A DNA stretch of 64,000 nucleotides, taken from NCBI RefSeq assembly GCF_000027125.1, contig NC_017626.1; one strand, 5' to 3'. The stretch comes from Escherichia coli 042. Lineage in GTDB: Bacteria > Pseudomonadota > Gammaproteobacteria > Enterobacterales > Enterobacteriaceae. A program made the position numbers and the translations under genes. Shown piece by piece: positions 20,501-22,254 of this stretch (position 1 is the first letter of the stretch; each line of letters starts with the position of its first letter). A model generated the notes under the pieces. That model saw only the letters and a list, made by a program, of their open reading frames with translations. It was not told the DNA's origin and did no database searches.

Positions 20501-20761
20501 AATAAGATGACCGGTAGCAAAAGCCCCGGCAAATGCCCCCGCCATGTTCAGTGCCGAAGATTTAGCTGTATTTATCTGATCCGTCACTTCTGCCAGTGCA
20601 CGCCGCATTTCACGGGATGCAGCAGCGGACTGTCGGCCTCCGTTCTGCATGGTACGGTAGTAATCCTGCCCCATACGCGAAGACCGGGAGATCTCTGACT
20701 GGAATGACCGGGAATTTGCCGAGATTTTAATAATCAGTTCACGTAATGTCGCCACACTCAT
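17528..20761 (-). CDS. H: tail tape measure protein H
   Basis: 1077-aa Ala/Gln-rich coiled-coil ORF upstream of M/L/K/I/J. Confidence 0.85.
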   Translation of the reverse strand: MSVATLRELIIKISANSRSFQSEISRSSRMGQDYYRTMQNGGRQSAAASREMRRALAEVTDQINTAKSSALNMAGAFAGAFATGHLISLADEWNSVNARLKQASQSSDDFQSSQRELMAISQRTGTAFSDNASLFARSAASMREYGYSSEEVLKVTEAISTGLKLSGASTAEASSVITQFSQALAQGVLRGEEFNSVNENGDRVIRALAAGMGVARKDLKAMADNGKLTADKVVPALISQLGALRDEYAAMPDTVSSSATKVENAFMAWVGGANEASGVTKTLSGVLNGIAGNIDTVATAAGALVAVGVARYFGNMASSAGSATAGLITAARNEVALAEAQLRGTQIATARARAAVYRAQQAVVAARGTERQAAAEAKLTAAQASLTRNIAARTAAQTTLNTVTSVGSRLLSGALGLVGGVPGLVMLGATAWYTMYQNQEQARESARQYAATIDEIRQKTSAMSLPEASDNEEKTRQALDEQNRLIDEQKSKIKSLQEKIAGYQYVLANPGWTTDNGFMINHMTSVKTVTEGLAEATNQLAVEQSRLTQMQGKAQSIQDVLAGLEERRVALIRQQAAEQNKAYQSLLIMNGQHTEFNRLLGLGNELLQQRQGLVNVPLRLPQATLDDKQQTALNNSERELALSRLKGEARERARLGYAADDLGFVGEAYQTARQNYINNSLDAWRNNQANKPKTHKKTEAEKTEDIYKRLIKQQKEQIALAGQNTELAKMKYQVSQGELSTLSEAQKKTLLQNAALIDQKKIREQLAAYESSLADSNASARASDEAQLLGYGEGSRMRERLQEMWSIRQAFEQKNNELLRQYQAGEIEEALWKQEKELNKKYLEERLSDQQDYYAKADALRNNWNAGLQEGLTNWADSATDYASQAADAVVSTMDGLVSNISDALAGNVVDWRNWGSSVLREVSKILMNAAIVNGLKSLSGAGGWLGTVGGWISGAVANAKGGVYTSANLSAYSNTIVDTPTYFAFAKGAGLMGEAGPEAIMPLTRAADGSLGVRAIGNVNGGGGFVYSPVYHISIQNQGSNGEIDARSARGLVDLIDSRVVSIMQSSRRDGGLYSA

Positions 20762-20801
20762 TCTCCGGACGAAAAAAAACCGCCGAAGCGGTTATGTTGA
20801 C

Positions 20802-21113
20802 TCACTGAGACACTATTAAAAGCGCGTTTTCCAGTCCAGCAAATGGATCTGATACGCCTTCTGTCTGCTCCTTCTCCCACTGAAGAAGCGCATCATTCAG
20901 TGGCACTTTGACCCCCTGCGCACCGTAAACAGCTGAAACAATCTGGGCAGCCCGGATATCAGCCCGTTCGTCCCCCAGCGGGCTGAACCTGTCAAATTCT
21001 GCCCACATCATGATTTCTGATGCGGACATTTCCCGGCGTAACTCTGACAATGTGCGCCCCATCCTGAGCGCCAGCATCATCAGAAAACGCATCCCCGGAA
21101 GCGCTACTTTTTT
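20802..21113 (-). CDS. T: T segment of tail assembly chaperone GT (expressed by -1 frameshift from G)
   Basis: ORF in the -1 frame relative to G, entered at the A AAA AAG slippery site at the end of G. Confidence 0.7.
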   Translation of the reverse strand, partial: KKVALPGMRFLMMLALRMGRTLSELRREMSASEIMMWAEFDRFSPLGDERADIRAAQIVSAVYGAQGVKVPLNDALLQWEKEQTEGVSDPFAGLENALLIVSQ

Positions 21114-21490
21114 TTAACCTCGCCGGCATCACTGATCAGTTCCAGAGACTGCCGAAGAAGCCGCGCATGCACCGGGCCATACACGGCAATCACCTGTTCA
21201 CGATCATCCACTGAAAATACAGGTTGCAGTCCGGTATCACACAGAACATCGATGAACAGTTCAACATCCGCTTCCAGATTTCGGCGGGCGCGCTCCGCAA
21301 CGGATAACGGTGTCTCATCATCTTTTGCTTTAACGATCTCCTGCCAGCGCAACCAGGCTTCTGCAGAAGGTTCCCGTAATACAACCGTTGCCCCTTCCCA
21401 TTCAGGCACATCAACAGTTTTATGGCGAAACCCCGACATCGTTGCCAGTGCCAGATTACGGATATTTTTAGTCATCACATCTATCCTCAT
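21104..21490 (-). CDS. G: tail assembly chaperone G
   Basis: 128-aa ORF ending ...GEVKKK, directly upstream of tape measure. Confidence 0.8.
   Translation of the reverse strand: MRIDVMTKNIRNLALATMSGFRHKTVDVPEWEGATVVLREPSAEAWLRWQEIVKAKDDETPLSVAERARRNLEADVELFIDVLCDTGLQPVFSVDDREQVIAVYGPVHARLLRQSLELISDAGEVKKK
21105..21113 (-). promoter_or_regulatory. programmed -1 ribosomal frameshift slippery site (A-run) for G/GT
   Basis: Minus-strand sequence GTT AAA AAA AAG TAG; the -1 frame continues into the T ORF. Confidence 0.6.
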
Positions 21491-22194
21491 TAACTGACGG
21501 TAACAGTGCAGGAAGTAGAGGTCACCTTGTTAACAGGACTTGCTGAATCAGAAATCTCGCAGGTATATGCACCCGCATCACCGGATACTGCCGATGCCTT
21601 ACTGAACGTTGCCGCCGTCTGTCCGGAAACAGGAGAACCACCTTTCTTCCAGACATAAGAATAAGGCGGCACACCACCCGCAGCCTCAACCGCCATTTCA
21701 AGTTTCGCTCCGGAAGCAACCCGCAGCGTGCTTTTTAAATCGGCCTTCACTTTCAGCGGCTCTGTCGTCAGCACAGGTTTACCTTTCAGGCGCAAGGAAA
21801 ACGTTGCAGCCACAACACCATTGGTTCCTGCAGACCAGGTATGCTGACGCACCTCTGCCATAAAGGTAAATCCGTTGCCTGACGGAAAAATAACTTTAAA
21901 GCCATACGTGGTGTCATTGTCATAGGCACTGCGCAACGCGTTCTGGGCAGCATTCAGATAAAAGTTGCCTGACATGGAAATCTCTGAAGCAGCCCCAAGG
22001 CCGTTAATATTTTCCTGCTCAACAGAACACAGCGTGGTGACATCAATATCCTGCTTTTGTCCTGCGGTAAACTGCACCTCTTTGATTGTACAGCTCAGGC
22101 CAAGATAGCTGGCAGAATCCAGGGTTTCTGCTGTTACCGGTGCAGACGAAATCATAATTTTCGTCAGTTGCGAACGCTCAAAATTAGAGGACAT
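21490..22194 (-). CDS. V: major tail protein V (with C-terminal Ig-like domain)
   Basis: 234-aa ORF; GGAG Shine-Dalgarno; C-terminal region looks Ig-like. Confidence 0.8.
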   Translation of the reverse strand: MSSNFERSQLTKIMISSAPVTAETLDSASYLGLSCTIKEVQFTAGQKQDIDVTTLCSVEQENINGLGAASEISMSGNFYLNAAQNALRSAYDNDTTYGFKVIFPSGNGFTFMAEVRQHTWSAGTNGVVAATFSLRLKGKPVLTTEPLKVKADLKSTLRVASGAKLEMAVEAAGGVPPYSYVWKKGGSPVSGQTAATFSKASAVSGDAGAYTCEISDSASPVNKVTSTSCTVTVS

Positions 22195-22254
22195 ACTCGT
22201 CTCCTGAAAATAAAAAAACCCGCCAGCGGCGGGTGGGTAAAATCATTAATGACC

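Follow-up and report, generated by a model that had tools for sequence, protein, structure and literature searches.

Gene G of a prophage tail module in Escherichia coli 042 ends at a stop codon next to a run of adenines, and its neighbor T continues from there in the -1 frame. The question this locus raises is how ribosomes come to translate T. We addressed it in a 64-kb stretch of the genome (64,000 nucleotides of contig NC_017626.1, assembly GCF_000027125.1), referred to below as the window; all positions are those of the whole window, and G, T, and the tape measure and major tail genes that flank them all lie on its minus strand. An earlier sequence-only reading had placed a programmed -1 frameshift site at 21105-21113, an interval comprising a slippery heptamer and two bases of the G stop codon. 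Our analysis indicates that the locus is very probably the programmed -1 ribosomal frameshift site of a tail assembly chaperone pair, G/GT, belonging to an HK97/lambda-like siphovirus prophage of E. coli.

On the minus strand, the codons at the end of G read ...GAT GCC GGC GAG GTT AAA AAA AAG TAG CGC TTC CGG GGA TGC GTT TTC TGA TGA..., and the string quoted earlier for this end, GTT AAA AAA AAG TAG, is exact. Read in the -1 frame, the site becomes GGT TAA AAA AAA GTA GCG CTT CCG GGG ATG.... It had also been claimed that T is open in this frame from the A-run onward, and this holds: the TAA ends at 21114, and from the first base of the heptamer the frame is open for 103 codons, up to the TGA at 20804..20802. 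Because this TAA closes the -1 frame immediately 5' of the heptamer, a productive -1 shift is confined to the heptamer itself. Calculation of the permissible shift window before the G stop gives 7 nt, exactly the heptamer, and A AAA AAG is the sole in-register heptamer within it.

The motif alone is not rare. AAAAAAG occurs 33 times on the two strands of the window, compared to 17.5 +/- 4.3 expected from dinucleotide shuffles, a density of ~2.6e-4 per position and strand. Many of the copies cluster at 40-55 kb on the minus strand. What is non-random here is placement and conservation. The heptamer lies on the coding strand, in the one position and register that permit a shift, between the open reading frames (ORFs) of Phage_TAC_1 and Phage_tail_T, and is conserved in relatives, a combination that is far beyond chance.

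Both ORFs belong to recognized tail assembly families. G matches PF06222 (Phage_TAC_1) over its full length, residues 1-123 (E=5e-58, 194.8 bits against a cutoff of 25), and begins with a Shine-Dalgarno sequence, AGGA (dG -6.1), which an upstream ATG at 21490 lacks. The part encoded in the -1 frame matches PF06223 (Phage_tail_T) across residues 151-219 of the fusion (E=1.3e-18, 67.6 bits, cutoff 25.9). The predicted GT protein, join(21475..21107, 21107..20802) on the minus strand, has 224 aa, and digestion with Glu-C is predicted to yield the peptide VKKKVALPGMRFLMMLALRMGRTLSE across the G-T junction. Along the minus strand, the major tail gene comes first, followed by G, T and the tape measure gene.

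To assess conservation, we compared predicted GT with 50,697 phage records by tblastn and obtained matches in 226. A two-piece match, in two frames, was seen in each of the 198 records in which at least 80% of GT was covered, at identities from 97% down to ~36%; these matches span phages of Escherichia, Klebsiella, Cronobacter, Bordetella and Burkholderia. Frames were analyzed for 93 related loci, those where both the G and T motifs were located. T lies in the -1 frame at 91 loci, and the other two have indels. Together with synteny, the PF06222 and PF06223 matches and a homologous junction in phage HK97, these results bear out the earlier description of a conserved G/GT arrangement upstream of the tape measure gene. 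One of the two observations named in advance as jointly speaking against that description was a T frame without conservation; both T-frame homology and the -1 arrangement proved to be conserved among relatives.

We considered whether the two exceptional loci represent alternative arrangements and rejected this in both cases, one being a homopolymer variant with A7 and the other a 2-nt deletion inside G. The first is a 98%-identical relative (L024; IMGVR_UViG_2531839448_000005, ~1560-1570, corresponding to window 21108-21115) that has A7 instead of A8. G there runs on into the +1 frame and T is unreachable by a -1 shift, reflecting an inactivating mutation or else an error in sequencing the homopolymer. 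The second, of the Klebsiella type (L052; IMGVR_UViG_2808606809_000008, ~1563), has lost 2 nt in G (CGTGAC to C--GAT), truncating G before the slip site, and probably stems from a defective prophage or a misassembly. Among the close loci scored, 44 of 45 keep A8, the remaining one being L024. A third length variant comes from Logan ERR13763603 (L096; contig 2624, 955-963, corresponding to window 21108-21115), where A9 makes G and T a single 224-aa ORF identical to predicted GT. This is the sole database occurrence of the exact GT protein, and real variation, an assembly error or RNA-derived reads are all possible.

The junctions of more distant relatives vary in sequence. The window group (56 loci, with seven junction variants having different flanks) and BP-4795 and the Stx phages have A AAA AAG followed by TAG; in Bordetella PHB09 and in Burkholderia phi1026b and Bcep176, A AAA AAG is found 10-11 codons 5' of the G stop. 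Other junctions are G GGA AAG (mEp390), G GAA AAG (the HK97 group and Cronobacter ENT39118), A GCA AAG TAA (Klebsiella P7641) and A AAA AAC (Moraxella Mcat9). In 11 of the 12 junction types, a zero-frame AAG is preceded by A. Judged from these sequences, this is the common denominator of the family, and it is from AAG that tRNA-Lys(UUU) of E. coli slips to AAA, as in lambda. Two of the sites at the homologous position are non-canonical. In the HK97-type junction (L005/L095; HK446 and HK97), the P-site GAA of G GAA AAG would re-pair with GGA. The Klebsiella P7641 junction (L006) has a 7-nt shift window, which implies single-tRNA Lys slippage on A AAG beside the stop. As adjacency of the G stop to the slip site is not conserved across the family, an adjacent stop is not essential.

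Three observations indicate that T is entered from G. In an alignment of nine GT fusions (alignment A1), T-frame homology starts at the slip site, with the pattern V-x-x-P-G-x-R-F-L-M-x-L-A-L-R-x-G-R-T-L. Pro127, invariant in this alignment, precedes all the T-frame ATGs of the window. One of these ATGs, at 21092, is replaced by ATT in a 90%-identical group (L061) in which the heptamer and TAG are untouched. Variable sites point the same way. Among close variants, 9 of the 16 located 5' of the heptamer fall at third positions of the G frame. Between the slip site and the T start annotated in RefSeq, 4 of 6 and 1 of 2 (in two groups) fall at third positions of the -1 frame, and beyond that start the corresponding fractions are 6/7 and 9/12. 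These counts are small but consistent.

One curated relative is HK97. Its record (NC_002167) annotates a joined coding sequence (CDS) 'translated due to a -1 frameshift' (Gp14) beside Gp13 (NP_037708), and joined CDSs are also found in HK446 and in Burkholderia phage Bcep176, where the two parts are labeled 'lambda G equivalent' and 'lambda T equivalent'. By BLASTP, window G is 65% identical to Gp13 over 123 aa (7e-60) and the T part is 63% identical to that of Gp14 over 101 aa (2e-46). HK97 GT scores 71.4 bits against PF06223. An exact-sequence look-up showed that HK97 Gp14 (NP_037707.1) is a fusion with the junction AREK|VSTPG, the shift occurring on an AAG that aligns with Lys123 of the window protein. 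The HK97 Gp13/Gp14 frameshift is credited in PMC5009743 to Xu, Hendrix & Duda 2004. Sequence comparison thus supports orthology of the window site with this lambda G/GT-type programmed -1 frameshift.

Frameshifting has been measured for two homologous sites. Antonov et al. 2013 (PMC3711429) described a 'Phage_TAC' cluster of 41 frameshifted, HK97-like genes and assayed two of its members with a GST-MBP reporter in E. coli. A cassette of the BP-4795 type with A AAA AAG TAG (fs-gene 15618692) gave 7 +/- 0.8% frameshifting, and one with G GGA AAG CCG TAA gave 6 +/- 0.61% (PMC3711429 Table S2). We found the former to be identical to the BP-4795 junction (L004) and the latter to match mEp390 at 70 of 77 positions. 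By analogy, the window cassette would be expected to shift at a similar rate.

In lambda, G and GT are made at a ratio of ~30:1, G binding the tape measure protein and T the major tail protein, with neither present in virions (PMC5009743, PMC3296357). The window site may be pictured along the same lines. Most ribosomes would read ...GTT AAA AAA AAG and terminate at TAG, releasing the 123-aa chaperone G, and a small share, probably a few percent, would slip back one base on A AAA AAG. At that moment tRNA-Lys(UUU) would occupy AAA in the P site and AAG in the A site or, alternatively, AAG would sit in the P site with the slowly decoded TAG in the A site. The slipped tRNAs would re-pair with AAA AAA, and reading would resume in the -1 frame with GTA GCG CTT..., adding 101 codons to complete the 224-aa GT. 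If G and T have the same molecular roles at this locus as in lambda, the tape measure protein would be coated by the G part of both proteins, and the scarce GT would use its T domain to recruit the major tail protein, leading to polymerization of the tube around the tape measure; neither protein would enter the virion.

Table 1. Coordinates of the slip site, the genes around it and the predicted RNA structures.
Feature	Position	Strand	Basis and remarks
Slippery heptamer A AAA AAG	21113..21107	minus	X XXY YYZ register, zero-frame codons AAA AAG; proposed site of the -1 shift
G stop TAG	21106..21104	minus	directly 3' of the heptamer
A8 run (T8 on the plus strand)	21115..21108	minus	includes the A stretch of the heptamer; homopolymer whose length tends to vary; RNA polymerase might also slip here
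-1-frame stop TAA	21116..21114	minus	directly 5' of the heptamer; -1-frame translation and shift-window calculation
Gene G (zero frame), encoding a 123-aa tail assembly chaperone, MTKN...EVKKK	21475..21104	minus	Pfam; RefSeq WP_000164664.1, 'phage tail assembly chaperone', same bounds
T segment, -1-frame part of GT, 101 codons (VALPGMRFLMMLALRMGRTL...IVSQ)	21107..20802	minus	PF06223 Phage_tail_T; includes TGA at 20804..20802
T as annotated in RefSeq, WP_000978930.1, 92 aa, 'phage tail assembly protein T'	21080..20802	minus	RefSeq; starts at the conserved 'FLM' Met; no joined CDS
Predicted hairpin UUCCG...CGGGAA around an 11-bp inner stem	21100..21030	minus	specific to the window; begins 6 nt 3' of the heptamer
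Major tail (tube) protein gene, 234 aa, C-terminal Ig-like domain	22194..21490	minus	directly upstream of G; weak tail-tube Pfam matches plus Ig_2/Ig_3
Tape measure gene, 1077 aa	20761..17528	minus	PF06120 Phage_HK97_TLTM 1e-93, PF20155 TMP_3, PF09718 Tape_meas_lam_C
Terminator-like hairpin AACCGCTTCGGCGGTT then T8	20793..20770	minus	between T and the tape measure gene
Terminator-like hairpin ACCCGCCGCTGGCGGGT then T7	22234..22208	minus	just 5' of the major tail gene

Several points weigh against the frameshift reading. One caveat is that the case for this exact locus is entirely computational (anatomy, domain identities, frame arrangement, shift position and HK97 orthology) or borrowed from homologs. 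The cassette of the window matches the assayed BP-4795 cassette at 51 of 75 positions, with differences at the other 24. Another concerns stimulatory elements. The 122 nt 3' of the heptamer in the window fold with z=-3.35 into a structure whose stem begins 6 nt downstream, and windows of 60 and 90 nt after the heptamer are unexceptional (z 0 to -1.1). The hairpin 6 nt downstream was not reproduced in relatives, so its role, if any, would be lineage-specific. Over the whole alignment, the consensus structure amounts to only -4 kcal/mol with an unfavorable covariation term. The GAGG found 3 nt 5' of the heptamer is lost in L060 (GAAG) and in L061 and is absent in BP-4795. Two further points bear on how else T might be made. 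The ATG of M133 (21080) is invariant in alignment A1 and has a modest GGGGA upstream (anti-Shine-Dalgarno dG -5.7), which leaves room for some independent synthesis of T. Finally, A8 is at the lower edge of the run lengths implicated in transcriptional realignment (PMC3711429), and part of GT could come from slippage of RNA polymerase.

Two candidate stimulators were rejected. One, discarded as a conserved element, is a GCGCUC...GGGCGC hairpin ~34 nt downstream of the heptamer in the enteric members, the sole structure that recurs, encoded by the conserved peptide A-L-R-x-G-R; it is broken by synonymous changes in Klebsiella and absent in Burkholderia, and shows no compensatory changes. The other is GAGG as a Shine-Dalgarno stimulator: its spacing is wrong for -1 stimulation, and it is not conserved. 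A dnaX-type Shine-Dalgarno-like element ~10 nt 5' of the heptamer was not found, the only such sequence there being the GAGG at 3 nt. Given that no conserved stimulator was found, the locus looks like a low-efficiency, heptamer-driven shift to which the adjacent stop possibly contributes. Rates of a few percent in homologs and in lambda agree with this.

The A-run invites another explanation, namely that RNA polymerase adds one A on A8/T8 in some transcripts and that the resulting A9 messages encode the same GT, with ribosomal shifting minor or absent. Either kind of slippage would yield ...VKKKVALPG..., and mass spectrometry of GT cannot tell them apart. A runs with n>7 have been implicated in programmed transcriptional realignment (PMC3711429), Thermus dnaX with A9 being an example, and the run here has eight. 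Moreover, 44 of 45 close relatives have A8 rather than A6, and A9 in DNA, as in the Logan contig, does yield exactly the predicted GT ORF. Yet what the family as a whole conserves is the heptamer in its register and not a long run, which shrinks to A6 in BP-4795/Stx, Bordetella and Burkholderia, A4 in HK97 and A3 in mEp390. Register relative to the zero frame is irrelevant to a polymerase, but it is conserved nonetheless, and a cassette with A6 still gave 7% in the reporter. Output is a further consideration. In the magnesium chelatase series, a run of 7 A gave 10%, and runs of 9-11 A gave 40-63% (PMC3711429); a large polymerase share at A8 would raise GT:G far above the low level that lambda needs. 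Hence we regard polymerase slippage as the principal source of GT as improbable.

A mixture of the two processes is conceivable. In this scheme, the run was extended from A6 to A8 in the E. coli prophage lineage, abutting the -1-frame TAA and the zero-frame TAG, and GT output is set by ribosomal -1 slippage (tandem, or stop-stimulated in the P site) and RNA-polymerase slippage acting additively, with A7/A8/A9 as a possible on/off switch. If true, dual slippage would give a GT:G ratio higher, or differently regulated, than in HK97 or lambda, and homopolymer variants with A7, A8 or A9 might serve as a mutational on/off switch for tail assembly in prophage populations. We offer this as a speculative and rather doubtful extension of the frameshift reading.

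It is also conceivable that there is no recoding at all, with G and T made as separate proteins, translation of T starting at the ATG at 21092 or 21080, either independently or through reinitiation after termination at the G stop, and the heptamer incidental. PGAP (the Prokaryotic Genome Annotation Pipeline) and most submitters annotate two CDSs, in line with this idea. The GGGGA upstream of the invariant M133 lies ~12 nt 5' of its ATG and pairs about as well as the sequences at real starts in the cluster, and in the Bordetella and Burkholderia homologs the G stop overlaps this ATG as TGATG. On the other hand, neither GGGGA nor the 21092 ATG is conserved, the anti-Shine-Dalgarno pairing is modest, and T-frame homology, including the invariant Pro, reaches upstream of the ATG to the slip site. 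A purely incidental heptamer is also at odds with the position of T in the -1 frame relative to G throughout the family (in all analyzed loci but the two with indels), with an in-register slippery site. Curated records of HK97, HK446 and Bcep176 annotate the fusion, a frameshift product was detected for both homologous cassettes in the reporter, and lambda T sequences are made only as gpGT according to Levin et al. 1993, as reviewed in PMC5009743 and PMC3296357. These data make the absence of recoding very unlikely, although some independent T could be made alongside GT.

That G and T were once a single gene, now merely broken by a frameshift mutation fixed in a decayed prophage and without a programmed role, an idea suggested by the chromosomal location of the locus and by the A7 and A9 variants, is effectively excluded by the breadth of conservation: among 5426 complete E. 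coli genomes, 901 carry T in the -1 frame in this way, as do PhiR49_2, Evi and phi467, phages with 97-99% identity to the window, and distant phages from other genera. In addition, every break coincides with a slippery site, nearly all close loci retain A8, and the head and tail genes nearby are intact.

With programmed -1 frameshifting as the preferred explanation, the annotation of T can be revisited. The sequence-only reading had held that the arrangement would be missed by standard gene callers. This is correct for the G-T fusion but not for the T ORF, which is called as a separate gene of 92 or 96 aa. The RefSeq coordinates of T, converted onto the window from locus L002, place its start at 21080; alternative records start T at 21092 (96 aa) and name it 'DUF4035 domain-containing protein'. 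Both starts are probably artefacts of the unmodeled frameshift. As G and T are annotated as separate genes, the 224-aa GT product is missing from protein databases, bar the accidental A9 contig. The importance of the site is thus mainly one of annotation, T having been given an arbitrary internal start and the name 'DUF4035' or 'tail assembly protein T', and recognizing the site gives the right set of proteins for a prophage tail module that is widespread in E. coli. The phenomenon, the family and even the heptamer-stop context are already described and measured, although RefSeq leaves the fusion unannotated. With this site, the known G/GT shift sites gain one more natural case of A AAA AAG beside a stop, and the understanding of frameshifting or tail assembly is left unchanged.

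The surroundings of the site are those of an intact tail module. Upstream of the major tail gene, which RefSeq names 'immunoglobulin domain-containing protein' and phage records 'putative major tail subunit', are genes for tail-completion, gp10-like, head-closure, connector and HK97-type capsid proteins. RefSeq starts the tape measure gene at a GTG at 20755. The region is 100% identical in E. coli strain Ecol_448 (NZ_CP015076), and PhiR49_2, Evi and phi467 are deposited temperate phages. The two terminator-like hairpins listed in Table 1 may attenuate transcription of the tail genes. Putative terminators are likewise annotated around the G/T region in HK97 and HK446, including just upstream of the tape measure genes. 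In some relatives, T and the tape measure gene are separated by an additional small ORF (a 'moron'), as in NZ_CP148474.1 (L003; 1858-2199, a 113-aa hypothetical protein) and HK97 (gp15; L095 1404-1592). No such insert is present at the corresponding spot of the window, 20762-20801.

Among known systems, E. coli dnaX and IS911-type elements have the identical heptamer, A AAA AAG, with slippage of tRNA-Lys on AAA AAG. Of these, dnaX reaches ~50% with the help of an upstream Shine-Dalgarno-like element and a downstream hairpin, whereas the window site, for which no conserved stimulator was found, would be expected to shift at a few percent. BP-4795 has a GT from the same gene family (64% identical), A AAA AAG directly followed by TAG, and T in the -1 frame. 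It differs in having A6 (AGA AAA AAG) in place of A8 (AAA AAA AAG) and a shift window of 22 nt as opposed to 7 nt.

HK97 shares with the window the pairing of PF06222 with PF06223, the slot between the major tail and tape measure genes, a shift on the homologous AAG (Lys codon 123) and a GT of 224 aa. Its heptamer is the non-canonical G GAA AAG, in contrast to the canonical A AAA AAG of the window. G in HK97 runs five codons further, giving a shift window of 49 nt, whereas the G stop of the window abuts the heptamer (7 nt). In HK97, the moron gp15 also separates T from the tape measure gene, where the window has only a terminator-like hairpin.

Lambda (Levin, Hendrix & Casjens 1993; Xu et al. 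2013, 2014) resembles the window in its gene order, V-G-T-H, and in shifting by -1 close to the 3' end of G, where tRNA-Lys(UUU) reads a heptamer whose last codon is AAG; its shift rate is sensitive to modification of U34 of tRNA-Lys (PMC5009743, PMC3296357). In lambda, too, a low-level shift sets a high G:GT ratio. The lambda heptamer is G GGA AAG, and its T is longer, 144 aa compared to 101 in the window. Window G matched only PF06222 and not PF06894 (Phage_TAC_2), the family of lambda gpG, and BLASTP of window G and T against lambda GT gave nothing significant, the kinship of the T proteins being visible only at the profile level (PF06223). On this evidence, window G is of the HK97 type and would work like lambda G while standing outside the lambda G sequence family. 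Lambda GT combines PF06894 with PF06223, and the GT proteins of the window and HK97 combine PF06222 with PF06223, such that the T domain is common to all three.

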